The position numbers were made by a program, and so were the translations under genes. Below the pieces are notes generated by a model. That model searched no databases. It had not been told where the DNA came from and was given only the letters and a program-made list of their open reading frames with translations. Of a DNA stretch of 64,000 nt, positions 141 to 53,881 are shown piece after piece; the stretch's first letter is position 1; the number at the start of each line of letters is the position of its first letter. The DNA is from an uncultured Gammaproteobacteria bacterium (GTDB lineage: Bacteria > Patescibacteriota > Microgenomatia > UBA8517), in assembly GCA_964458085.1 (NCBI GenBank), contig CAYWFF010000001.1, positions 890 to 64,889 on the forward strand, in the 5' to 3' direction.

Positions 141-2285
141 TCAAAGTTCGCAAGTCGAAAAACCGCACTGTTTACATTTATAGCACTTTTTATCTTTCTT
201 CAACGGCACATCACAAGTCGGGCACATCTTGACTTCAGATTTCCTGTTTGCTCCTCCAAATTCAAACACCTGATCCTTTTTAGTTCTATCTCGGTAAACC
301 GTCAAACCTTTACAACCCAATTTCCAAGCTAGTACATAAGCTTCTTCAATATCATTAGGAGAAGCAGTTGAGGGCATGTTTATAGTTTTGGTAATTGCAT
401 TATCAGTCCACTTTTGGAAAGCTGCCTGCATTTTGATGTGATCACGCCAGTCGATGTCGTGAGCCACTTTGAAAACACGTTTAATGTCTGTAGGAATTTC
501 TTCTATATCCTGGATACTACCGTGACTTTCTACAATTTTTTGGATTAGGTCCTCTGAATAGATTTTTCTTTCTTTCAATTTTTCAACCAAAGTAGGTACA
601 ATTGTCCGAAGCCGCATGCCTTCCATAACATTTTGTTCATAGGCAAGAGCAAAATAAGGTTCAATCCCGAAAGAAGTCTCGCAAATTACTGCGTTACCGC
701 TTGATGGCGGAAAAGTAAGAAGAGCAACATTTCTAGGTTTTCTCTTTTTATTTGCCCAGATGGAATCAGTGACAAATGGAAACGGTCCTTTTTCATCAGC
801 CAGATCACAAGATGCATCAAATGCAGCAGTGTACATAGTTTTGGTAACTTTTTCAGCTAAATCAAAGGCTTCTTCTGAGTCATATGGAATATCAAGAAGC
901 GCCAAAGCCTCTGCCCAACCCACTGCTCCCATTCCGATCCGCCGGTGATTTCTCACTGCCTGCTGAACTTCTGAGACAGGAAACCATGACGCATCTATTA
1001 CGTTGTCCATAAGCCTGGTTGCAACTTTTACCACTTCACTTAGATGATCGTGATCAAACTTATTGTCTTTTATAAATTTTGTGAAATTCACATACCCTAA
1101 ATTACAAGATTCAAAAGGGAAAAGAGGTTCTTCCCCGCAAGGATTTGTAGCGGCAATCGGTCCGCGTTTTTTAAGAAGCGGATTTCCGAGTGCAGTTCCT
1201 TTGTTAATTGCAGATAAATTAATAATCCCCGGATCCCCGGTTTGCCAAGCCATTGTTGCCATCAAATCTAAAATGGATTTTGCGTTCACCGTGTTTACAA
1301 CTTCTTTAGTTCTTGGATTTACAAGATCCCAATTTTTACCTTTAAGGGCAGCTTCCATAAAGTCATCAGTAATGCCTACTGAAATATTTGTTTTAGGTAA
1401 ATAACCGTCTGTTTGTTTAGCGGATATAAAGTTAAAAATATCAGGATGGTCAGCGTTAAGTATCGCCATATTGCCCGACTCATATTTTCCCTCCTGCCTG
1501 AAAAGACTGGTCATCAGATCAAACATTTCAATCATTTTGACCGGACCTGCTGCAAGTTCAGGGATCCCACCTACCAAATCCCCCTCAGGCCGGATGTTAG
1601 AGAAATTGTATCCGCAACCCCCTCCGTGTTTTTTAATGAGTGTGGATTTATGCAATATCTCAAAAATATCGTTAATGTCATCTGTCATAGGCCAGACAAA
1701 ACAATTTGCCAACTGAGGAGTTTGCTTGCCTGCGTTTGCGAGAGTCCGGGTTCCGGGTAAAAATTCAAATGACTCCATAATTCCTAAAAACTTACTAAAC
1801 CACTTTTCCTGTTTTGCCTTGGTTTTTTCAACAGAAGAGAGTGTTTTTGCAACACGGGTAAGCATTCCTTTTGGAGATTCTATAATTTTCCCCGCTTTGT
1901 CCCTGCGTAGGTACCTCATCTTTAAAATGTAAAGCGTGTTGTATGAAAGCCCTATGTCGTCTTTTACCCCCAATGCATTTTTATCCTGTTTAATATGTTT
2001 CTTATTTTCTCGGAAGCGTATGTAGGCTTTTGCAGTCTTTGCATGTCCGCGCTCAATTAAAACCTTTTCCACAATTTCTCCGATTTCTGATGTTAAAACC
2101 GCTTCGCCATTCGGATAACGATTGTTGACAAATGCCACAACTTCCCCGGTAATTTGTTCTGCCAAAGTTTTATCACTCCCGCCTACACTTTGGGCAGCAA
2201 GCCAAATACTGGTGAGGATTTTTTCCGGGCTAAAGACTTCTTTTTGGCCGATATTTTTTAGTACTAGTTTTTCTTGTTTTGCCAT
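141..2285 (-). CDS. nrdJ: class II (adenosylcobalamin-dependent) ribonucleotide reductase, paralog 1
   Basis: Active-site NPCGE motif (thiyl Cys-Glu), conserved N-terminal Cys (ANCFVW) and ESCNL Cys, no glycyl-radical motif, C-terminal CxxC...CxxC zinc ribbon; 714 aa. Confidence 0.8.
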   Translation of the reverse strand: MAKQEKLVLKNIGQKEVFSPEKILTSIWLAAQSVGGSDKTLAEQITGEVVAFVNNRYPNGEAVLTSEIGEIVEKVLIERGHAKTAKAYIRFRENKKHIKQDKNALGVKDDIGLSYNTLYILKMRYLRRDKAGKIIESPKGMLTRVAKTLSSVEKTKAKQEKWFSKFLGIMESFEFLPGTRTLANAGKQTPQLANCFVWPMTDDINDIFEILHKSTLIKKHGGGCGYNFSNIRPEGDLVGGIPELAAGPVKMIEMFDLMTSLFRQEGKYESGNMAILNADHPDIFNFISAKQTDGYLPKTNISVGITDDFMEAALKGKNWDLVNPRTKEVVNTVNAKSILDLMATMAWQTGDPGIINLSAINKGTALGNPLLKKRGPIAATNPCGEEPLFPFESCNLGYVNFTKFIKDNKFDHDHLSEVVKVATRLMDNVIDASWFPVSEVQQAVRNHRRIGMGAVGWAEALALLDIPYDSEEAFDLAEKVTKTMYTAAFDASCDLADEKGPFPFVTDSIWANKKRKPRNVALLTFPPSSGNAVICETSFGIEPYFALAYEQNVMEGMRLRTIVPTLVEKLKERKIYSEDLIQKIVESHGSIQDIEEIPTDIKRVFKVAHDIDWRDHIKMQAAFQKWTDNAITKTINMPSTASPNDIEEAYVLAWKLGCKGLTVYRDRTKKDQVFEFGGANRKSEVKMCPTCDVPLKKDKKCYKCKQCGFSTCEL

Positions 2286-2327
2286 AAAACTGGTTTAGTT
2301 CAATCGTTATAAAAAACTCTTACTTTT

Positions 2328-4670
2328 CTAGATTTTGCATTTGCTCCAACCGCATTCTTTGCAAGTCACACAACCGCCTTCAAATTCAACAACCCCTCCG
2401 CATTCCGGACACTCTTTTTCGTCGTAAACTTCAACTTGTGCAATTGCCTGACCTGTTAATTTTTTAGACGAAGCTTTCTGTTTAATGCCGGCATTTAAAA
2501 CCTGATCATCTTTACTGCCGTCCCGATAAATAGTAATTCCTTTACAACCCAATTTCCATGCTAAAAGATAGGCTTTTTTAACATCACCAACCGTTGCTGA
2601 ATTTCTGAAATTAACCGTTTTTGAAACTGAATTATCGGCATAGCGTTGGAAAGCTCCTTGTATCCGAACATGCCACTCAGGGTCAATATCGTGAGTTGTA
2701 ACAAAAACTTTCTGGATATCTTGGGGTATTTCTTTCATGCCTTGAATCGACCCGTGGTTTTCTGCTATTTTTGCAATTAATTCTTTTGAATATAAACCCC
2801 GCTCTTTTAAAACCGCTTCAAAATTAGGCTCTACATAGAAAAGCGACGCAGTTGAGCGGTTTTTGGAGTCTTCGTTGTAAAAGGACCGTCTGGTATATAC
2901 AAGTGCAAACAAAGGTTCAATCCCAGAAGTTGTATTTCCGATCATTGAAACAGTACCGGTGGGTGCAATTGTAATCATGGTGCAATTTCTGTATTTTTCA
3001 GCAGATCCTTTATAGGTTGATATATCCCAATTAGGGAAAACGCCTCGGGTCTTTGCTAATTCAAGTGACGCATCCTCAGCGTTTTTCTTCACAAATTTTG
3101 CAATTTTGTCGGCAATTCTAACGCCTTCCGCAGTGTTGTAACCCACGCCCATTTTAAATAAAACTTCAGCAAAACCGATCATTCCAACTCCTATTTTCCG
3201 GTTGCCGTATTTAACCAGCCGCTCTGTTTCTGTCAAAACATAGGCATTTACTTCAATCATATTGTCCAAAAACCGAACGACGGTTTTAACGGTTTGTGCC
3301 AAATCGTCCCAATCCATTTCATAGCTTCCGTTCTGTTTCACCAAGTGACTGGCCAAGTGGACAGAAGTCAGGTTGCAGGATTCATACGGCAGTAAAGGCT
3401 GTTCTCCGCAGGGGTTTGTAGCATCCAGTTTTCCCAAAGTTGGCGTGAAATTATCCTCTTCCATCCTATCAAGAAATATCATTCCCGGATCTCCAGTTTT
3501 CCACGCGTGTTCACAAATATCATCAAAGAGTTTTTTCGCTCTGACGGATTTTACCGTAATACCGTTTCTGGGATTCACCAGATTAAAACGTTTATCAGAC
3601 ACTACGGCGTCCATAAATTCGTTGGTTACACCGACTGAAATATTAAAGTTCTTCATCAAACCATCCTGATCTTTAACTGAGATAAATTCATAAATATCGG
3701 GATGTTCAACATTGAGTATTCCCATATTTCCGCCGTGCCTTTTTGCACCCTGAACTATTTTTGAAAGTGCTGCAGAATATACCTGCAGAAAATCAACCGG
3801 TCCTGAAGCGGCGTTGGGAATATTTCTTACTTTATCTCCTTTAAATCTGATTTGACTGAAATTAAATCCTGTCCCACCATAATTCTTCTGAATTAGTGCA
3901 GCGTCTCCCAATGTTTTAAAAATTGCACCTATTGAGTCCGTTACCGGTAAAACAAAACAGGGAGACAATTGCTGAAGGCAAGCTTCATTTCCCGCTTCAT
4001 ACAAAGCACTTCTGGTACACACAAATTTAAAACGCGCCATTTTGTCAAAAAATATTCTGGCAACCTGTTCAACCAGCTTTTCGTCCCCCCAGGTAATCTC
4101 CGCTTTTGCCAAGTGTTTTGCTACCCGCCAAAATATTTGACCCGGAGTTTCCAGAAGATCCCCGCTTGAGTCCTGTTTGGAACATCGGGAAACCAACGTG
4201 AGTTTAGCGTTTTCTGTCATTTTAGGTTCCCACATTTTATAAGAAGATTTTTTTGCACTTAGCTTTCTCTCTTTAAAGAGAATGTAATATTTTGCAGCTT
4301 TGAAGTATCCCGCTTCAGCTATAATCGGTTCTACAATGTCCCGGATTTTTTTGGTAGTAATTGTCTCCTTGTCGATTTCTGAAAGAATAATGTAAACTTT
4401 TTTAAAGATGTCCTTTGCGGTTTTTTGACTGTATGTCTTAGTGTCTTTGCCGACGAGAATTATACTTTTACTTAGTTTTTGTAAACTGAATTTTTCTTTA
4501 TCCCCTGTACTTTTGATTACCGTTTCTATTTTCAAGTGAGGCAGTGAAGCTGCCGAACTGCTTATTTTTAAATCACCATAACTAACAGTGGCTAACATTT
4601 CACCCGGAGGGCTGCCTCTACCGTTTGTTGATTTTTGGAGGTTTTTTAAACTGCCGTTATTTTTTTTCAT
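2328..4670 (-). CDS. nrdJ: class II ribonucleotide reductase, paralog 2
   Basis: NPCGEQPLLPYESCNL motif block, conserved Cys set, C-terminal Cys4 ribbon; 780 aa; diverged from paralogs 1 and 3. Confidence 0.8.
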   Translation of the reverse strand: MKKNNGSLKNLQKSTNGRGSPPGEMLATVSYGDLKISSSAASLPHLKIETVIKSTGDKEKFSLQKLSKSIILVGKDTKTYSQKTAKDIFKKVYIILSEIDKETITTKKIRDIVEPIIAEAGYFKAAKYYILFKERKLSAKKSSYKMWEPKMTENAKLTLVSRCSKQDSSGDLLETPGQIFWRVAKHLAKAEITWGDEKLVEQVARIFFDKMARFKFVCTRSALYEAGNEACLQQLSPCFVLPVTDSIGAIFKTLGDAALIQKNYGGTGFNFSQIRFKGDKVRNIPNAASGPVDFLQVYSAALSKIVQGAKRHGGNMGILNVEHPDIYEFISVKDQDGLMKNFNISVGVTNEFMDAVVSDKRFNLVNPRNGITVKSVRAKKLFDDICEHAWKTGDPGMIFLDRMEEDNFTPTLGKLDATNPCGEQPLLPYESCNLTSVHLASHLVKQNGSYEMDWDDLAQTVKTVVRFLDNMIEVNAYVLTETERLVKYGNRKIGVGMIGFAEVLFKMGVGYNTAEGVRIADKIAKFVKKNAEDASLELAKTRGVFPNWDISTYKGSAEKYRNCTMITIAPTGTVSMIGNTTSGIEPLFALVYTRRSFYNEDSKNRSTASLFYVEPNFEAVLKERGLYSKELIAKIAENHGSIQGMKEIPQDIQKVFVTTHDIDPEWHVRIQGAFQRYADNSVSKTVNFRNSATVGDVKKAYLLAWKLGCKGITIYRDGSKDDQVLNAGIKQKASSKKLTGQAIAQVEVYDEKECPECGGVVEFEGGCVTCKECGWSKCKI

Positions 4671-4709
4671 AAATATAACTAATCACTAAATACTAAAACT
4701 CACCTGTCG

Positions 4710-7172
4710 TCAACACTCTGAATATCCGCAACCATGACATGTTTTGCAACCCATTTCGTGTACTAAAGTTGCGTTTCCGCATGAAGGGCACATATCTGCC
4801 TGTTTTGTAACTAATTCCATTTGAGCAGGAACTGCTTGCTCTTGTAAAGGAAGAGTCTGCTGCTCCTCGGCATAGCTGTTTCCGTTGCCGTTTATAGCAT
4901 GAGGGTCTTGTTTCTCTTTACCCGAAAGCATTCCCATATCCATAGCAAGCGCTTTTGCTATAGCATCGGGAAGCGATAGTATTTTCTCTGATCCGAAACC
5001 TACTGTCCGAGCTCCCCCAATACCCATAAGCTGATCGATTATAAATACTGCCCGCTCTCTCGTGCTTAGGTTGCTGCCGAATCTCAATGATTTCGAAATT
5101 AACCTGCCTAAAGCTTCCGCCATAGCCTGAACATCACTCCCCGCACGGCCGATATTTATAAACAACTCAACCGGCGCTCCCGTCTCATCGTGGTTAACTG
5201 TAATAAACGCCGTCCCCACCGGAGTTTTCAGGCGATAAGTTGCGCCAATTACTTTAGTGGGGCGAATCCAATTGTAGGACTTTTGCAATTCGCCATTTAC
5301 GTTTTCGGGTGAAATTTCACTTTTACCTGCTTCTTTACCTTTAGAGCTTTCGTCTGCCCTGATTAATGTTCCCTCACGCGATCCTTCTCGCATATAAGAA
5401 ATTCCCTTACATCCCGTTTCGTAAGCAAGTTCATATAGTTTTTTAACATCGTCCACGCTGTGAGTTTTTGGCGCGTTTACGGTTTTACTAATGGAAGAAT
5501 CGGTATAATGCTGAATTAATGATTGAATTTGTACATGCTCCGCAGGAGTTAAATCATCAGCAACAACAAAATATTCCGGCATAGTTTCAGTTCCGTTTTC
5601 ATCAACCCACTCCTGATATAACGGGTGGTACATAGTTCTCTCGCCTAGTCGATCCTTTTGGATATAAGAAAAAGAAAAGACCGGTTCTATTCCAGATGAT
5701 GCTCCTGCTAAAAGCGCAATTTTCCCGGTCGGTGCTTCAGTCAGGATAAGTGCATTTCTTATCCCGTGTTTTTTAATATTTTTCCGAATGCCTTGAGGCA
5801 TGGTCCTCATAAATCCGCTGGCAAGAAACTTGTCTGCCATGAACTGCGGGAAAGCCCCTTTTTCCTTTGCCAGATCCACTGACGTTTCATAAGCGACATC
5901 CCGAAGCGTCCGGTAAATTTTTTCAATCACTTCAAGAGACTTCTTGGATCCATAGCGAATTTTCATTTTTATAAGAGCGTCAGCTAAACCCAAAGTTCCC
6001 AGCCCAATACGTCTCTCACGCGCCTGAACTTCCTCTATTTCGGGATATAAATATTTCTCGGCATCAACTGCATTATCCAGGAACCGCACTCCTGAGCGGA
6101 CAACATCAGAAAACTCTTTATAGTCAAAAAGACCCCCGGAGACAAATGAGGAAAGATTGATTGAGCTTAAATTACAAACACCCCACGCAGGTAATCCCTG
6201 TTCGCCGCAAGGGTTTGTAGCAATGTTTTTTTCAAAGTACCAGGTGTTGTTCATTTCGTTGTATCTATCCATGAAGACTACTCCCGGTTCAGCCGAAGCC
6301 CAAGCAGAGTTACAAATTTTGTCCCATAGATAGCGGGCTTTTTCTGTTTTATACACCCTTACAGGGTGGCCTTTAGATTCCCAGTCGGACATATCTCCCT
6401 GCCAGTCTGTCCGGTAGTGAGGTGAGTCGGTATCCGGGAATTTAAGATCCCAATTGGCATCACTTTTTACAGCCTTCATAAAAGAATCTGAGACACAAAC
6501 GCTTAAATTTGCTCCTAAAATTTTCCCCTGTTCTTTTTTGACAGTAATAAATTCCTCCAAATCAGGATGCCAATCCCACAACATAATCATAAGAGCTCCT
6601 CTTCTGGTCCCTCCCTGTTGAATAATGTCATGAGCAGCCACAGAATAAATATTTGCCCAGCTAACTGCTCCCGAACTTGTACCATTAACTGACTTTAAAT
6701 AAGATCCACGCGGCCGCAGGCTTGAGAGATTAAAACCAACTCCTCCGCCCCGAGCACTTATCTCAGTCATTTGTTCAAGTGTTTTAATTATGCCTTTTCT
6801 GGTATCTTCGGGACTAGGTATTACAAAACAGTTAATCATAGTCGTGTCAGTACCTGTTCCTGCGGTTGTCAAAAATCGGCCTGCGGGACAGAATCTAAAA
6901 TCAGTCATTGCATCAAAGAACTTTGCTTCCCATTCTTTTTTCAACTTTGGCGTTTTTTCTACTTGAGCAAGAGCTTTGGCGACTCTTTTCCACATTTGCT
7001 CTGGATATTTTTCAAGCGGGCTGCCGACTTCGTCTTTCAAGGAATAGCGGTCAAGGAACAGTTTCTGTCTTATACCGGAAAGCTCGGTTCCATTGTCGAG
7101 TTCAAAATAATACCGGTTGGAGCCTGAATATGCTTTTCTTTTTGTTTTTTTTGCAGAACTTTGTAGTTGCAT
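4710..7172 (-). CDS. nrdJ: class II ribonucleotide reductase, paralog 3
   Basis: NPCGEQGLPAWGVCNL motif block, conserved Cys set, C-terminal Cys4 ribbon; 820 aa. Confidence 0.8.
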   Translation of the reverse strand: MQLQSSAKKTKRKAYSGSNRYYFELDNGTELSGIRQKLFLDRYSLKDEVGSPLEKYPEQMWKRVAKALAQVEKTPKLKKEWEAKFFDAMTDFRFCPAGRFLTTAGTGTDTTMINCFVIPSPEDTRKGIIKTLEQMTEISARGGGVGFNLSSLRPRGSYLKSVNGTSSGAVSWANIYSVAAHDIIQQGGTRRGALMIMLWDWHPDLEEFITVKKEQGKILGANLSVCVSDSFMKAVKSDANWDLKFPDTDSPHYRTDWQGDMSDWESKGHPVRVYKTEKARYLWDKICNSAWASAEPGVVFMDRYNEMNNTWYFEKNIATNPCGEQGLPAWGVCNLSSINLSSFVSGGLFDYKEFSDVVRSGVRFLDNAVDAEKYLYPEIEEVQARERRIGLGTLGLADALIKMKIRYGSKKSLEVIEKIYRTLRDVAYETSVDLAKEKGAFPQFMADKFLASGFMRTMPQGIRKNIKKHGIRNALILTEAPTGKIALLAGASSGIEPVFSFSYIQKDRLGERTMYHPLYQEWVDENGTETMPEYFVVADDLTPAEHVQIQSLIQHYTDSSISKTVNAPKTHSVDDVKKLYELAYETGCKGISYMREGSREGTLIRADESSKGKEAGKSEISPENVNGELQKSYNWIRPTKVIGATYRLKTPVGTAFITVNHDETGAPVELFINIGRAGSDVQAMAEALGRLISKSLRFGSNLSTRERAVFIIDQLMGIGGARTVGFGSEKILSLPDAIAKALAMDMGMLSGKEKQDPHAINGNGNSYAEEQQTLPLQEQAVPAQMELVTKQADMCPSCGNATLVHEMGCKTCHGCGYSEC

Positions 7173-38700: not shown

Positions 38701-38765
38701 TCATTCATCTTAGCTTTCAAATGTTCTACTTGTAAATAGCCTAAGGATTGTAATATGATGACTCA

Positions 38766-38899
38766 GGTTGTGTTCAAGGAATACGGTCAAATCCGTAGCT
38801 GTACCGCAACTGTAACCTTTCGATTTTCGAAGGGAAGCCAGAAAACTAACAACCGCTGCCAAATTTATATTGCTTTTGGCGTATCCCGAGTAGGAAAAT
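38766..38899 (+). ncRNA. cobalamin (B12) riboswitch, copy 1
   Basis: AAGGAAUACGGUCAAAUCCGUAGCUGUACCGCAACUGUAACC ... GGGAAGCCAG core matches the B12-element pattern (GGGAAg-ACGGUG-AAUCCg-AGCnG-CCGCnACUGUaA; GGGAAG box); conserved AUCCCGAGNAGGAA segment overlapping the RBS of 38900. Confidence 0.75.
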
Positions 38900-39347: not shown

Positions 39348-39974
39348 ATGAAAAGATCCCAAACTTACACACCCTTTGCGAAACGCCTTGTAATTGGTCT
39401 TTTTGTTATTGCTTTTTTAGAACGAGTAATATTTGATCTGGGTGCGAATGTTGAACTTGTTACGGCTGCTTTCATACTTGGTAGTGCTTACTTGGGAAGA
39501 AATCAGGTTTTATGGTTAGTTTTGGTTCTTATGGTTTCCACAGACCTTTTACTGGGAAACACAAATATATTTCTTTTTACCTGGAGCGGTTTTCTCGTTC
39601 CGGCATTTTTTGCTGGAGGCTTAACTAAAAAACTTATGAGGTTTATCAAACACTCCAAAGTCCGCTTTCCCAATAAATTACTGAAGGGTATAGCACTCAC
39701 TTCCCTAGGATTAACTTCCAATCTCTTTTTCTTCTTTTGGACTAATTTTGGAGTATGGCTTTTGGACTCTTACGGCATGTATGCAAATGATTTCGAAGGG
39801 CTTATGCTTTGTCTTATAAACGGCCTGCCCTTCTTGCGCTCACAAATACTAAGTACTCTTATCTTTATTCCCGTTTTCGCTATAGCAGTAGAAATCTCCA
39901 CTCTTCCTGTCTTCAAACTATTGACCAATAAATTGCTGTTTTCCAATAATTTCAAAGTTCTGGTCAAAAATTAG
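39348..39974 (+). CDS. integral membrane protein, possible ECF-type S component for cobalamin (CbrT-like)
   Basis: 208 aa, about 6 TM; co-transcribed position after riboswitch-controlled secreted protein. Confidence 0.4.
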   Translation: MKRSQTYTPFAKRLVIGLFVIAFLERVIFDLGANVELVTAAFILGSAYLGRNQVLWLVLVLMVSTDLLLGNTNIFLFTWSGFLVPAFFAGGLTKKLMRFIKHSKVRFPNKLLKGIALTSLGLTSNLFFFFWTNFGVWLLDSYGMYANDFEGLMLCLINGLPFLRSQILSTLIFIPVFAIAVEISTLPVFKLLTNKLLFSNNFKVLVKN

Positions 39975-39977
39975 AGA

Positions 39978-40103
39978 GATTGTGTTTAAGGAACTACGGT
40001 GTAAATCCGTGACTGTGCCGCAACTGTAACCCTTCGATTTTCGAAGGGAAGTCAGAAAACTAACAATTCTCTTCGTATATAAGCAACCATCCCGAGCAGG
40101 AAC
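39978..40103 (+). ncRNA. cobalamin (B12) riboswitch, copy 2
   Basis: near-identical core to copy 1 (AAGGAACUACGGUGUAAAUCCGUGACUGUGCCGCAACUGUAACCC...GGGAAGUCAG) and the same AUCCCGAGCAGGAA segment before ATG at 40104. Confidence 0.75.
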
Positions 40104-40985: not shown

Positions 40986-41072
40986 CGCACATTAAATTTA
41001 AGCATTAAGCATAAAAGTTGTAAGCAATAAATTCTAAAATCTGACAGCAATTTGCTAATTGCTTTTTAACAA

Positions 41073-41385
41073 TCCCCGGTAGCTCAGTGGTAGAGCAGGA
41101 AGCTGTGAAGTGACGCAGCCTTCAACAGAGATGTTGAAGAGAAAATTGGGTGAATTGCGGGAAGCCTAAAGCTAAAGCTAAGGTAATCCGCAGCCAAGAC
41201 CTATTTGATATTATCAAACAGGTAAGGTTCAGAGACTAGGTGATTACACCCAGAGTCGAGTCTGACTCGACGAGAGCGCCCAACACCCTACCCTTTTAGG
41301 AAGGGTGATGAGATAGTCCACGCTATATGGAAACATATGGATCAGTGTAACTTCAAGGTCGTAGGTTCGAGCCCTACCCGGGGAG
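41073..41385 (+). tRNA. tRNA-Asn(GUU) interrupted in the anticodon loop by a group I intron
   Basis: exon 1 41073-41106 (UCCCCGG UA GCUC AGUGGUA GAGC A GGAAG CUGU) + exon 2 41348-41385 (UAA CUUCA AGGUC GUAGG UUCGAGC CCUAC CCGGGGA G); 7-bp acceptor, U1-A72, G73, body closely resembles bacterial tRNA-Asn; splice junction chosen by exon-terminal U / intron-terminal G and P1 pairing GCUGU/GCAGC. Confidence 0.7.
41107..41347 (+). ncRNA. group I self-splicing intron (241 nt)
   Basis: canonical core elements readable: P (GAAUUGCGGGAAG), Q (AAUCCGCAGCC), R (GGUUCAGAGACUAG), S (AGAUAGUCC); terminal G; 5' exon ends in U. Confidence 0.75.
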
Positions 41386-42876
41386 CACATTAGTACGATA
41401 TTCTGGCAAAAGCAGTACATCGTAAGGTTTTTTGAGGCGAAAATCGAGTTTTCCGTCTTTCAAAATAAGGTTCTCACCGAGGTCGAGAATCAAATCACGT
41501 TTTTCTTCCTTTGTCCCATTCTCCAATCTTTCTTTAGCTGAAAACGCATTATCGAGATATCGTGTGCACATTTCCAACCAAGTATCGGCTGAGTAATCAT
41601 TATCTTCCAACTTTTCTTTGATAGACTTTTTCTCATTGAGAAGTTCTGACTTCTGCTCCAGAAACTCTTCCTTAGTTAGTTCTTGATCTGCTCTCATCCT
41701 GACCAGATACTTAATTCGAGTTTGGATGGCATTATATTGATTCTGTAAATATCTTGCTCGTTTGGAAAACTTTTCTACTTCTTCTTGGTATTTGGCTTTG
41801 AATAACTCAATACCTAATTTCCATGTCTCTTCATCAATCTTGATCTGCACCATGTTTTCGAGCAGAAGTTTTTCTAATCTTTTGCCTGTTATTGCTTGTT
41901 GTTTGCAAATACCTCTTCTGTGAGTGCAATGGTGGTAAGTATAGACAACTGTTCTGTTGGTACGTTTGAAATACTTTGTTTTGACTGTTGTTGTGATTTG
42001 GCAGCCACAATCGCCACAAGTAATCAATCCGTTATAGGTATGCTCCCATACTTTCAATTTAGGCCGAGAACGGAGTTGTAATGCCATTTGCACATCCTCA
42101 AACAACTTCTTGGTTATTAGTGGTTCATACGTACCTTCAAACAACTCGCCATTATGGTGGAAGTATCCATAATAAACTATGCAGTTTAGAATGTTGTGTA
42201 CATGGCTTTTACTGATTTTCTTACCTCGCTTAGTTCGTAATCCTTTATCGTAAAGATGTTTGGCAATCTTTGAGAGGGGGTTACCTTCTTTCGCCATTTG
42301 AAAAGCCTGTTGAATCAATGGGCCTTCAAACGGATGTGGCCTCATAATTCGTTGTCCTCGAATACCAAAGCCTTCATATCCAACTATAGCTGGTCTGGGA
42401 TACTCACCACGTTCGCACTTATGATTTAGTCCTCGTTTTACGTTTTGACTTAGATTTCTTGAATACTGATTAGCCATCCCAAAGTGGATTTGCAGAATCA
42501 GGTGATCTGATTCCTGTGTATAGACAGAACCAGTTGCTGTTCTAATTTCCTTGAGCACACCATCTTGGAGGAGTTGTAAGATCATTCCTCCTTCTTCTGG
42601 ATTACCACAAAGACGATCTTCTTTCCAACAAAGAAAAGCATTTGCTTTTCCAGTCTTTATCAACTGGATTGCCTTATCAAAGTCTGGTCTGTTGTGAGGC
42701 TTGAAAGCTGATCTACTCTCAGAGAATCGGTATTTGACTCTGAGTCCTTCTCGTTTTTCAACCTTTACATTTTCAGCATGTTGATCTTTGAGAGAAGCTA
42801 CTTGTCGCTCTTTCGCTTCGGACGATTTGCGACCATATTCTATATGCACAATTTCATTATCTATACTCATATTCAT
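41374..42876 (-). CDS. large serine recombinase (integrase)
   Basis: N-terminal YGRKSSEAKERQ catalytic Ser motif, recombinase domain, C-terminal CGDCGC...HHC zinc ribbon + coiled coil; 500 aa. Confidence 0.8.
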   Translation of the reverse strand: MNMSIDNEIVHIEYGRKSSEAKERQVASLKDQHAENVKVEKREGLRVKYRFSESRSAFKPHNRPDFDKAIQLIKTGKANAFLCWKEDRLCGNPEEGGMILQLLQDGVLKEIRTATGSVYTQESDHLILQIHFGMANQYSRNLSQNVKRGLNHKCERGEYPRPAIVGYEGFGIRGQRIMRPHPFEGPLIQQAFQMAKEGNPLSKIAKHLYDKGLRTKRGKKISKSHVHNILNCIVYYGYFHHNGELFEGTYEPLITKKLFEDVQMALQLRSRPKLKVWEHTYNGLITCGDCGCQITTTVKTKYFKRTNRTVVYTYHHCTHRRGICKQQAITGKRLEKLLLENMVQIKIDEETWKLGIELFKAKYQEEVEKFSKRARYLQNQYNAIQTRIKYLVRMRADQELTKEEFLEQKSELLNEKKSIKEKLEDNDYSADTWLEMCTRYLDNAFSAKERLENGTKEEKRDLILDLGENLILKDGKLDFRLKKPYDVLLLPEYRTNVLPG

Positions 42877-47201: not shown

Positions 47202-48821
47202 TCAGTTGGCAAATGTGGGCGTGTAGTTATTTGACATAAGAAACTCTCGATAATAGTTTCCCACATAGTCAGTTAGTGCGAGCCAAGTATCACTTATCCG
47301 AACTAGCCTCAAATTTTCAAGTACTTTGAAGGCATCGGTATAAGTAACATTTACAACTTCTTTATCTTTTATCCAGATTTTGCATGCAAACCATCTTAAG
47401 AACTGTTTTTTCTCCTTTTTATTAAATGCTTTATATAGCTTGGGTAATTGCTTTAAGAATTTAATAATAGTATCTATTTTCTTGTCATCCAAGTTAGCTG
47501 AAGGCTTGGAAAGCTTTGCAATATCAGCCTCTACGGATTTAAGTTCATCCTTCAAAGGTAAATACTTCTTTTCAATTCTATCTTGAGGCATTACTTCTGC
47601 AATCATCTGATCTTCAAGTTTGTCCATTTTCTTTTCTATCACTGCTTTTCGGTCTTTCAGTGCCTTTGTTCGTGATGGAATATCATCTCCTTGTTCTTTC
47701 ATAACCTCTTCGAGCTCAGTTCTCAAGCCCTTGAAAAATCTCTCATCAAACTTGATGTTAGCCATAAACTTTTCTAATTGCTTATGAACTTTATCCATCG
47801 GAGCATAGGATTGTTTGCAAACCTTTCCTTTTCTTGAACCTAGACATCGATAATACTTAAAAACCCTTCCATCTGGTTTGACGTGTTGCTCACCAGACAT
47901 AAGAGTTCCACATTCATCACAAAAGACCAATCCTGCAAGAAACCAATTGTGTTTTCTTGACCTGTCAGCACCTTTGTTATGTTTAGCTAAGATTGCCTTA
48001 GACTTTTCTATATCTTCCATTGTTACTATTGATTTATGTTTACCGTCATACATTTTCCCACAATATAACACCTTTCCAGCATAGCGTACATCAGTAAGTA
48101 TTCTGTGAATATTGCTGGAACTAACTCTTTTTCCGTTCTTGGTTCTAAAGCCTTCTTGATACATTTCTTCTTCAAGGGAATAGATGGAGTGATTACCTGT
48201 ATGAAATCTTCTGAAAATTTCTTTAATAAAGTAGACTCTTTCTTTATCAATTTTCCAGGCAACGCCTTTTTTATAAGAGTTTAGATATCCAATGACTGCA
48301 ACTCCTGGTTGAAAACCTTTCTCTGCAAGTGCTACCATTGTTCTTTTTGTCTTCTGTCCTGTTATTTCCCTTTGAAGCTGATTTGCTCCAGCCATTACTA
48401 AGTCCACAAATTTACCAACTGGATCATCACCAAAGTTAGGTTGTTGTGTGGCTATTAGTTCAACACTGTGTTTTTTAAGAAACGATTTTACAGCTAAATG
48501 GTCTTGTGCATCTCTTGCGAATCTATCTGTTTCCTCTAACAAAACAATATCAACATCCTTATCTTTCTCACATCGCTCAAGCATTCTTGTAAATTCTGGC
48601 CTACCAGTTGTACTACCACCACTCTTGCCTCCGTCTTTATAGATTTCTAATATTCTCCAGTTATGTTCTCTTGCATATTTAACCAACCTATCTACTTGAT
48701 CATCTAGAGAATGTCCTTCCCGAACCTGTCTATCTGTGCTTACTCTTGCGTATATTAGACAGCTTTTGATTCTAGCTTGATCTTCTATATGAGAAATATT
48801 TGTTGTATATGTCATTTTCAA
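47202..48821 (-). CDS. large serine recombinase (second copy, distinct sequence)
   Basis: IYARVSTDRQ catalytic motif, recombinase domain, CDECG...YYRC zinc ribbon, C-terminal coiled coil; 539 aa. Confidence 0.8.
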   Translation of the reverse strand: MKMTYTTNISHIEDQARIKSCLIYARVSTDRQVREGHSLDDQVDRLVKYAREHNWRILEIYKDGGKSGGSTTGRPEFTRMLERCEKDKDVDIVLLEETDRFARDAQDHLAVKSFLKKHSVELIATQQPNFGDDPVGKFVDLVMAGANQLQREITGQKTKRTMVALAEKGFQPGVAVIGYLNSYKKGVAWKIDKERVYFIKEIFRRFHTGNHSIYSLEEEMYQEGFRTKNGKRVSSSNIHRILTDVRYAGKVLYCGKMYDGKHKSIVTMEDIEKSKAILAKHNKGADRSRKHNWFLAGLVFCDECGTLMSGEQHVKPDGRVFKYYRCLGSRKGKVCKQSYAPMDKVHKQLEKFMANIKFDERFFKGLRTELEEVMKEQGDDIPSRTKALKDRKAVIEKKMDKLEDQMIAEVMPQDRIEKKYLPLKDELKSVEADIAKLSKPSANLDDKKIDTIIKFLKQLPKLYKAFNKKEKKQFLRWFACKIWIKDKEVVNVTYTDAFKVLENLRLVRISDTWLALTDYVGNYYREFLMSNNYTPTFAN

Positions 48822-51435: not shown

Positions 51436-51638
51436 GTTTATTTAATCCTCCTTGTTTTCGGAACAAATTGATAATTCGGGTAGACGTTAGTATTTATAGA
51501 GATATACAAGAAGCACTCACCAAAATGACATCTGCCTACTAGTATTTGTCTAGAAACCGTAATGTCTACCACTTTTCTTGTTTTATCCCTATTTTTAGGT
51601 GTATTTGTTGTTTTCATATGTCTACCTAATGTCTACCC
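51422..51638. repeat. array of GGTAGACG / CGTCTACC motifs (2 in one orientation, 3 in the other)
   Basis: tGGTAGACG 51422, gGGTAGACG 51468, aATGTCTACC 51561, ATGTCTACC 51618, ATGTCTACCC 51629. Confidence 0.45.
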
Positions 51639-53881
51639 AAACATCTCTAGATTGGGAATTCCATATCTGCGTAATAAATCTTTGACAATGCTGACTTTGA
51701 CTTTATACCTACAATAACCTCTTACTTTTCTTCCTCTTATACCAAATCTTTTAAGTGCTGCACCTACACCTCTACTGGTAAAGTACTGTCTTTGATCTAT
51801 TTCAAGATATTCGCTTGCTTTATCTTTTATCTCTTTGTTTTCAAGTTCTACTGTTTCCTGTTGACCAACAAGTTCTCTTAATGCAATTAGGACTGCGGAG
51901 TCAAAATCATCAAGGTCGACACTAGAGGTTTCTTCTGCTCTTCTTATTGCCTCATCTCTTATGTTTTCAAAAGTTCCTGGAAGCTCTGTATCTATTATTT
52001 TTGCAATAGAGAGTAGGGGTTTCCAAAGCTCGTTTTGGCGGTTAAGTAATGCGTTTACTTTAGAATCTGAGCTATATATTTTTGCTATCTTTTCGGAATA
52101 ATCCAGTGAAAATGAGTATAAAAGATTTCTTAGATAACTCCAGTCTTCAGACCCTTCTGTAACAGCGGTATTTCCTTTATCTGGGTTATTGGTTCTTACC
52201 ATTGTTAGGGTAATTGACCTGTCTTCTAACACATCATCAAGTCCTGATATGTTGGCAATGGCTTTAGGGCTATAGATTTCAAACGCCTCAATATCAAAGT
52301 TGCCTTTTTTGTTTTTTGTGGTTCTGTATGCAGGTGCTCCTCTTTTGTAGCCTGAATTTAACAATTCCCTTAATTCTTGTTTTCTTGTCTTATCTGAAAG
52401 CTGTTCACCTTCATCAAGTGCCAGTGTCGGTCTTTTTGCTTCAACCAATCTAAAGAGCACTGCAGGAGAGATATTACTTGATATGATTGCGTTAAATGCT
52501 AATTTTTCAATAATAAGAAGTGTTTTGGTTTTTCCACTTCGTTTTACTCCAACAAGGTATAAATACGGATACGCATCAAAAACAGGGAAACAATATGTTC
52601 CCATCAGCCAAAGAGCAATAATATCTGCATCATTCTCATCTCTGAAATCTACAAATTTTTTTAACACTTCTTTTATTTCTATAAAGGCAAGGGAAGGAGA
52701 AACTTTATCTTTATTGACTAGAAACTTGTTAATATCTTCTACTTTCCATCTCTGAATGTTGTTTGGAACAAGTGATACGTCACGTAGACTGTATGTCTTA
52801 TTTTCAAAATCTATATAACCATGTCGGTTTTTGTCTATTCCAACTTGTTTATTGCTAGTAATTACAACTACAGCTTTAGATTTCTCATCATCTACTTGAA
52901 CTGGTAGCTCGAATGTATAAAACAATTTGCTGTCTTTATAGTCTACGGCAGGATGAATTTTCGAATCTGACTCTTCATTTAGTAGCTTCACTTTAGGTTT
53001 ATGAGACTTAGCTTCATCAAGCAATTTTTGAAAGTCATCAGCAGAATGTCCTTGCTTCACAAAAAAGTCTGTTAAGTCTACTTTTTCTTCACCGTTTTTA
53101 GGAAGTTTAACAATCCTGGCTCTGTCACCAATAAAACTTGCTACTTTTTTAGCACCTGATACACCTGCTTCATCAGTATCAAAACAAATATATATTTGTT
53201 TTACACTTTCGAACTCTTTTACCCACTCTTTTTTAAAAGTACTTGCACCTGCAGTACTGCTTACGGAAGGAAAGCCGTTTTGCGTGGCTATTATAGCGTC
53301 AAACTCACCTTCACAGATAACTATGTAGGAATGGTTATTCTCTAGTGCCACACTATTAAAGATCGAGGCTTTACCACCTTTTTCATTCCAATATTTTTGT
53401 CCCTTATTCTTTTTTGGATCACGGCGGTGACGAAGGTTTACTAAAACATTATTAACAAACACGGGAAGTACGATACTTTCTCCATCCCATCCGATTCTAA
53501 ACTTGTTTATGGTTTCTTCAGTAAGTCCACGCTCTTTGAGTAAATACTCTTTTATACTGTTGGGTATGTTTTGATGATAGTTGTCAACATTTTTAATGCT
53601 AAAGTTTTTTTTCTTTAGCTTTACTTTATATTCAATTCCCCTGTTAATTACCTGTTTTTCAAGTTGAGGCAGGTTATTATCTCCAAGTTTTTCAGTTATG
53701 TTCTGCCAACTGCCTTTAGCTCCACAGCGATGACAAATATAACATCCATCAGCGTTGTTGATATATAAATGCTTTTTTTATCATCACAGAATAAGCATTG
53801 TATTTGTGCTTCTTTGCCTTCGGACACAATTTTGTGTGGTATACTTTTTGCTGACAAGTATTGTTCTACGTTTTGATACAT
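51633..53881 (-). pseudogene. DnaG-type primase (zinc-binding + Toprim) fused to P-loop NTPase, frameshifted within an A7 homopolymer (about 53773-53779)
   Basis: Toprim VICEGEFDAIIATQNGF and Walker A GVKRSGKTKT in 51633-53462 ORF; upstream in-frame extension encodes ...KKHLYINNADGCYICHRCGAKG up to a TAA at 53778-53780; the 53696-53971 ORF in another frame encodes ...QCLFCDDKKSIYI; joining at the A-run restores a CxxC-x16-CxxCHxCG primase zinc ribbon. Confidence 0.6.

Follow-up and report, generated by a model that had tools for sequence, protein, structure and literature searches.

We identified a tRNA-Asn(GUU) gene at positions 41073-41385 (plus strand) in which a 241-nt group I intron with an IC3-like core and no homing-endonuclease ORF separates U35 from U36, and which is in all likelihood spliced by the standard group I steps (a probability of about 0.9). 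The gene lies in a stretch of 64,000 nucleotides, hereafter the window, for which a sequence-only reading had already proposed such a gene; the letters of 41073-41385 and all of the features described there were recovered. The group I identity, the boundaries 41107-41347, the 35/36 junction and the assignment to Asn(GUU) are supported by the comparative tests described below.

The 5' exon (41073-41106, plus strand) comprises the 5' strand of the acceptor stem, the D arm, the 5' strand of the anticodon stem and nucleotides C32 U33 G34 U35. It reads TCCCCGG-TA-GCTC-AGTGGTA-GAGC-A-GGAAG-CTGT, with 41106 as its last base, and an equivalent 5' half is present in 89 homologous loci. The 3' exon (41348-41385, plus strand) begins at 41348 with U36 A37 A38 and carries the 3' strand of the anticodon stem, the variable loop, the T arm, the 3' strand of the acceptor stem and G73 (TAA-CTTCA-AGGTC-GTAGG-TTCGAGC-CCTAC-CCGGGGA-G). 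When 41106 is joined to 41348, the resulting 72 nt fold as a canonical cloverleaf, which ARAGORN identifies as tRNA-Asn(gtt) while setting the length of the gene at 73 bases, in agreement with the earlier observation that the two halves form a cloverleaf only on removal of 41107-41347. The sole defect is a G27·A43 mismatch at the outer end of the anticodon stem; all other hand-drawn pairs of the exons are standard. The top blastn matches of the spliced sequence in E. coli are annotated tRNA-Asn. G73 and the anticodon are identity elements for AsnRS; G73 is present in the window copy and in nearly all homologues, and the genes of the family start with TCC. A CCA end is not encoded in the window copy, which reads GCAC, and follows G73 in 59 of 81 family loci.

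The intron (41107-41347, plus strand) matches the Rfam group I model RF00028 over 41097-41340 with 119.4 bits (gathering score 50; E-value 1.6e-30), covering model positions 1-253 of 253. This full-length match, from the scan that the sequence-only reading had suggested, is the only group I match in the 64 kb. No ORF of homing-endonuclease size is present in the intron, which is overlapped only by ORFs of 29-58 amino acids. The minimum free energy (MFE) fold of the anticodon arm plus intron has a z-score of -5.6 relative to 200 shuffles and, without guidance, gives P1-P6, P6a, P7.1, P8 and P9; the centroid fold adds P7.2.

To find homologues, we scanned 185,579 GTDB species genomes with a pattern in which the D arm and CTGT are followed, after a gap, by the P3/P4 core. 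The scan yielded 92 loci (L001-L092), 89 of which have the architecture of the window copy. The remaining three were excluded as chance matches (L006; L071, which is an intronless tRNA-Asn; and L085). Intron length in the family is 194-288 nt, and all 18 homologues that were run against RF00028 passed, with 66-109 bits. The family is mostly found in Patescibacteria, chiefly Saccharibacteria. By taxon label, 39 of the 89 loci are Saccharibacteria, including Ca. Saccharimonas aalborgensis (L042), and some 18 belong to further Patescibacteria lineages (Davies-, Roizman-, Berkel-, Peregrini-, Gracili-, Giovannoni-, Wildermuth- and Azambacteria, or genomes labelled just Parcubacteria or Patescibacteria group). 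Chloroflexota account for seven (of which five are Limnocylindria or Limnocylindrales, one is from Anaerolineaceae and one carries the label Chloroflexota alone), three are Omnitrophota and nine are unclassified 'bacterium' metagenome-assembled genomes (MAGs). Ten TPA MAGs are labelled Gammaproteobacteria (L011, L034, L047, L049, L054, L065, L066, L068, L079 and L090), and single TPA MAGs are labelled Planctomycetia, Nevskiaceae and Bacillota. The labels of these TPA MAGs look unreliable, because their tRNA and intron sequences cluster with those of Roizman- and Daviesbacteria: L049, L079, L065 and L090, which we compared by identity, rank beside these two groups. The closest relatives of the window copy are about 72% identical to it (L049, L079 and L067, the last from Roizmanbacteria). 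Together with gene content, these nearest tRNA and intron relatives make the window look Patescibacteria-like rather than cyanobacterial. It has about 39% GC, and its gene content includes nrdJ in three tandem copies, a pair of PBP1 genes, GAPDH and many small genes without known function. Two of its proteins were looked up by exact sequence, and neither has a recorded match. A blastn search with 41060-41400 found no match among PLSDB plasmids and INPHARED phages, and the tRNA-plus-intron pattern found none among IMG/VR viral contigs, so that we see no sign of a phage-borne copy.

We aligned the 81 complete copies (79 distinct sequences), drew P1-P9 by hand on the window sequence and counted pairs. 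With the pseudoknot included, 90.7% of 5,248 cells hold standard pairs, compared with 35-41% when registers are slid by 1-3 columns. Changes on both sides of a pair were seen in 967 cells and at 49 of 75 pairs, and none of 500 shuffles reached the observed values. The anticodon stem, whose strands lie on opposite sides of the intron, likewise covaries in the 81-copy alignment (95.3% paired, changes on both sides at all four pairs).

The structure of the intron (all features on the plus strand) begins with P1 (41102-41119), in which GCUGUG (41102-41107, consisting of exon nucleotides G31-U35 and the first intron nucleotide, G+1) pairs with the internal guide CGCAGC (41114-41119). The U41106·G41115 wobble in this helix marks the 5' splice site. 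P2 (41120-41139) has eight base pairs, all of which show changes on both sides, is present in the MFE fold and is capped by a GNRA loop (L2, GAGA, 41128-41131). The core elements P (41153-41164, AAUUGCGGGAAG), Q (41185-41195, AAUCCGCAGCC), R (41227-41239, GUUCAGAGACUAG) and S (41311-41319, AGAUAGUCC) are all present as the sequence-only reading had described them. The P3-P7 core, which that reading had named as the part on which its proposal would stand or fall, folds throughout the family. P3 (41146-41152 with 41277-41283), for both of whose strands we counted covariation, is 96.9% paired with changes on both sides at five pairs. P4 (41156-41161 with 41187-41192) is invariant and 100% paired; it encloses P5 (41164-41167 with 41181-41184; 74.7% paired), and P4/P5 correspond to elements P and Q. 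P6 (41193-41195 with 41226-41228) was included in the covariation count, and P6a (41199-41202 with 41220-41223), which is accompanied by a distal hairpin, is 95.3% paired with changes on both sides at all four pairs. P7 is formed by 41232-41238, which is part of element R and carries a bulged A41233, and 41314-41319, which is part of element S. This helix is nearly invariant (99.8% paired) and forms a pseudoknot with P3. C41318 pairs with G41234 beside the bulge, and we take this pair, from general knowledge of group I introns, to be the guanosine-binding site.

The region between P7 and the 3' strand of P3 carries an insert of 18-48 nt in 67 of the 81 copies and none in the other 14, and its sequence varies by lineage. 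In the window it consists of two hairpins. The one in the P7.1 position (41239-41250, GGUG-AUUA-CACC) is seen in the MFE fold and, by alignment, is common to the window and eight relatives (L027, L049, L054, L065, L067, L079, L090 and L091). The one in the P7.2 position (41255-41271; seven base pairs, loop CUG; in the centroid fold) is shared with L079 only, where double changes from U-A to C-G and from G-C to A-U keep the helix. P8 (41284-41307) is a hairpin that is 83.3% paired, with changes on both sides at all seven pairs. P9.0 consists of two pairs, A41320-U41346 and C41321-G41345, one of which covaries. P9 (41323-41329 with 41334-41340), all seven pairs of which covary, is capped by a GNRA loop (L9, GAAA, 41330-41333), and the intron ends with G41347. 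A P10 candidate in the window, 41108-41111 with A38-U41 of the 3' exon, is weak, and we rejected a conserved P10 as a feature of the family because the P1 loops of relatives are often only 3 nt long.

The positions of the splice junctions follow from the alignment. Every one of the 79 distinct sequences pairs C32 U33 G34 U35 with GCAG, and the U35·G wobble is likewise found in 79 of 79. The next pair, between the first intron nucleotide and the guide, is CG in 35 sequences, AU in 22, GC in 20 and GU in two. Since this pair is never unpaired and covaries, it fixes the register of P1 and makes U35 the last nucleotide before the 5' splice site. UAA at the 3' border is preceded by a G in 81 of 81 loci, and the P9.0 pair that includes 41321 is CG in 61, UA in 17 and AU in one. 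The exon-end U, the intron-end G and the GCUGU/GCAGC helix noted previously are thus all present, and the junction between positions 35 and 36 holds across the family.

We also scanned metagenome contigs for uninterrupted genes, using the D stem, the anticodon stem and the start of the variable loop of the window copy and allowing GT or TG at positions 34-35. Among the 121 matches listed, from at least 120 contigs (L093-L212), the anticodon loop reads CTGTTAA in 119 and CTTGTAA in none; the remaining two have TTT and also differ in the acceptor stem. For 110 of the matches listed, ARAGORN reports tRNA-Asn(gtt). A variant found on at least three contigs, TCCCCGGTAGCTCAATGGTAGAGCAGGAAGCTGTTAACTTCAAGGTTGTAGGTTCGAATCCTACCCGGGGAG, differs from the predicted ligated product at five of 72 positions, which fall in the D and variable loops and the T arm. 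These matches indicate that the ligated exons are a real tRNA-Asn and that the intron is optional among close relatives. As judged from the matches listed, uninterrupted tRNA-Asn genes with exons nearly identical to those of the window are abundant in metagenomes.

The likely course of splicing can be outlined from general group I chemistry, by which catalysis would reside in the RNA and would be independent of protein. P1 would arise in the folded precursor when the guide at 41114-41119 pairs with 5'-exon nucleotides G31-U35, and the U35·G41115 wobble would thereby come to lie at the active site, which the P3-P7 pseudoknot and the P4-P6 domain make up. The attack after U41106 would come from an exogenous guanosine bound in P7. 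The terminal G41347, positioned by the two base pairs of P9.0, would then replace the guanosine in its binding site, and the freed 3'-OH of U35 would attack after G41347, ligating the exons into the 72-nt tRNA. The ligated tRNA would then still require CCA addition and charging by AsnRS. Given the weak and unconserved P10, it is probably the anticodon stem that does most to keep the exons together.

Because GU occurs at both borders of the intron, a second 241-nt excision (41105-41345) is formally possible, in which splicing after U33 (41104) and after G41345 would yield tRNA-Thr(UGU). Precisely this product is what ARAGORN gives when introns are allowed: the window and many homologues are called tRNA-Thr(tgt) i(33,241), and the shifted boundaries in the window likewise give a U at the exon end and a G at the intron end. 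Within the window, only the register of P1 separates the two products: the wobble is at U41106·G41115, whereas U41104 forms a Watson-Crick pair with A41117. The family is more decisive. The wobble is invariant at U35. In 20 of the 81 homologues, an A or a T stands in place of the G that would have to terminate the intron for tRNA-Thr, and this position instead covaries as part of P9.0. In addition, the tRNA body, with its TCC start and G73, resembles the intronless tRNA-Asn of L071, and CTTGTAA is missing from the 121 listed uninterrupted matches. We consequently rejected a tRNA-Thr(UGU) gene with junctions that comply with group I rules as scarcely credible, and the preference for Asn that had been expressed on the basis of P1 pairing and G73 is borne out.

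Two other explanations accept a tRNA-Asn gene and differ from autonomous splicing of a functional precursor. The locus could be a decayed relic that no longer splices, in which case it would be a tRNA pseudogene and an intact tRNA-Asn would be encoded elsewhere in the genome, of which we view 64 kb. In its favour are the unencoded CCA, the abutting integrated element, with an integrase ORF that extends into the gene's 3' end, and the intronless alleles that are common in related organisms. However, the window copy has the highest RF00028 score of the 19 copies tested, retains every position that is invariant in the family and, apart from G27·A43, has only standard pairs in the drawn structure and no defect in the fold of its exons, which makes decay very unlikely. 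Alternatively, a genuine intron could be removed in vivo with the aid of a protein cofactor or chaperone, for which the hairpins in the P7.1 and P7.2 positions could serve as a binding platform. The presence of a lineage-variable insert in 67 of 81 copies and the weak P10 are compatible with this proposal. In contrast, 14 members have no insert, no candidate cofactor gene is linked to the locus, and the GNRA loops L2 and L9 and the compact, fully paired core resemble those of tRNA introns that splice autonomously. We therefore consider dependence on a protein unlikely and prefer a functional tRNA-Asn(GUU) gene with an intron that splices by the group I pathway.

Group I introns of bacterial tRNA genes are known from tRNA-Leu(UAA), tRNA-fMet(CAU) and tRNA-Ile(CAU) as well as tRNA-Arg(CCU), where they are inserted at 34/35 or 36/37, and tRNA-Asn(GUU) is outside these four hosts. 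The number of different tRNA genes reported as hosts is also four (PMC1995217). A full-text literature search, which was thin on subscription journals so that an earlier description is possible, found no paper that names a group I intron in tRNA-Asn. The tRNA-Asn host and the 35/36 insertion site thus appear to be undescribed so far, while the kind of element is familiar. The closest report (Lui et al. 2021, PMC8172020) is of group I introns that interrupt tRNA genes in CPR genomes, which are probably the same phenomenon; it gives no isotype, junction, structure or distribution, and the accessible part of its supplements contains neither 'intron' nor 'Asn'. Cyanobacterial 'group I introns' of 22-49 nt reported in other tRNAs (PMC5733544) were set aside as irrelevant here.

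The sequence-only reading had compared the junction with that of cyanobacterial tRNA-Leu introns. That comparison is fair, but the window is Patescibacteria-like, and the arrangement belongs to a family of about 90 genomes and is not a single oddity. The intron of Anabaena PCC 7120 tRNA-Leu(UAA) resembles that of the window in several respects: both are compact group I introns (approximately 200-250 nt) that have no ORF and interrupt a bacterial tRNA in its anticodon loop, and both form P1 from nucleotides of the anticodon loop and anticodon stem. The two have core blocks in common (GGGAA.CCUAA, AAUCC..AGCCAAGCC, GGAAGGU.CAGAGACU and GAGA.AGUCC), and an HMM of the family scores 32.5 bits across P4-P7' against an Anabaena IC3 intron sequence, a comparison that serves as a lead only. 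They differ in host and site, which are Leu(UAA) and 34/35 in Anabaena and Asn(GUU) and 35/36 in the window, and in distribution, since tRNA-Leu introns occur in cyanobacteria and plastids and the family described here mainly in Patescibacteria. The 18-48 nt domain between P7 and P3' in the window and most members is also absent from the Anabaena and Azoarcus sequences used for comparison.

Reinhold-Hurek and Shub reportedly described in 1992 the introns of Azoarcus tRNA-Ile(CAU) and Agrobacterium tRNA-Arg(CCU), which are of the IC3 type. These are likewise small tRNA introns of non-cyanobacterial bacteria, with GNRA loops on P2 and P9 and splicing after the U of a P1 wobble, and theirs are self-splicing. 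They are reported to follow U36 (site 36/37), whereas the window intron follows U35 even though position 36 is also a U. The match of the family HMM to the Azoarcus sequence is weak (9.2 bits). Hairpins between the 5' strand of P7 and the 3' strand of P3, in the P7.1/P7.2 position, are shared with IA introns such as that of phage T4 td; in contrast, the window intron looks IC3-like in its size, its tRNA host and the remainder of its core. Phage IA introns are located in protein-coding genes (PMC3984707). By comparison with these IC3 sequences, the core looks IC3-like, being compact with GNRA loops L2 and L9, and the insert between P7 and P3' is atypical.

Genes of this type are a systematic annotation trap for tRNA finders. 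In default mode ARAGORN reports no tRNA in the 64 kb, and in intron mode its call is tRNA-Thr for the window, tRNA-Thr again for about half of the homologues (L001-L092) and Asp or Ala for a few of them, mislabelling the gene because the splice-site rules of group I introns are ignored. tRNAscan-SE 2.0 is not designed for group I introns (PMC8450103). As a consequence, many Patescibacteria MAGs will seem to lack tRNA-Asn or will have it labelled as Thr, with effects on completeness scores and on inferences from codon usage, and the family stands unannotated in about 90 public species genomes. With this intron, the known tRNA hosts of bacterial group I introns rise to five and their insertion positions gain a new one (35/36), and the family provides about 90 natural variants for studying how small ribozymes tolerate peripheral insertions. 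If the split gene is the only tRNA-Asn gene in these reduced genomes, then their translation depends on a ribozyme. More broadly, we would give even odds to the proposal that the family is an undescribed group I clade specific to tRNA-Asn(GUU), with a new site at 35/36 and its own P7-P3' domain, extending through Patescibacteria to Chloroflexota and Omnitrophota. It may split the sole tRNA-Asn gene in these organisms, such that a ribozyme would be needed for AAC and AAU to be decoded and genomes would be scored as having no tRNA-Asn or an extra tRNA-Thr.

Directly 3' of the tRNA gene and convergent with it is a gene for a large serine recombinase (41374-42876, minus strand) that ends 12 nt inside the 3' exon, such that its last four codons and stop codon lie within the T stem and acceptor stem of the tRNA. 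A second large serine recombinase gene (47202-48821, minus strand) adjoins a Toprim/DUF3631 primase-like gene. These, together with 51633-53462 (minus strand), which we list with the two recombinases among the features of putative tandem elements, suggest two integrated elements in tandem at approximately 41.4-57 kb. The GC content drops from about 40% to 33-36% at 48-60 kb, over the second putative integrated element and adjacent cation-exchanger genes.

Homologous recombinase genes are found in the same position and orientation beside intron-containing tRNA-Asn genes in eight other genomes (L003, L011, L012, L017, L026, L057, L079 and L089) and, among the metagenome matches listed (L093-L212), beside intronless tRNA-Asn at 25 of the 57 loci with enough downstream sequence. 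Their occurrence beside both kinds of gene indicates that tRNA-Asn is a recurrent site of integration independent of the intron, and it looks to be a recurrent target of serine integrases. We rejected the adjacent serine integrase as the cause of the intron, its homologues adjoining intronless tRNA-Asn just as often. No repeat of the tRNA 3' end that could represent an att site was found, as is expected of serine integrases. In several relatives (L003, L026 and L089, and also L012 and L079) the recombinase ORF extends in antisense into the 3' exon of the tRNA or all the way through it; in the first three it reaches 7-13 nt into the end of the intron and stops 27-51 nt inside the gene.

Other parts of the window hold further features of note. 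The three tandem genes for B12-dependent ribonucleotide reductases of the NrdJ type (141-7172, minus strand) each give strong matches, and the triplication is unusual. Upstream of genes for DUF4430 and DUF6580 proteins and of a 274-amino-acid ORF without a family match are two cobalamin riboswitches (38751-38868 and 39963-40082, plus strand), which at 35.9 and 32.5 bits pass the Rfam threshold of 31.5 narrowly.
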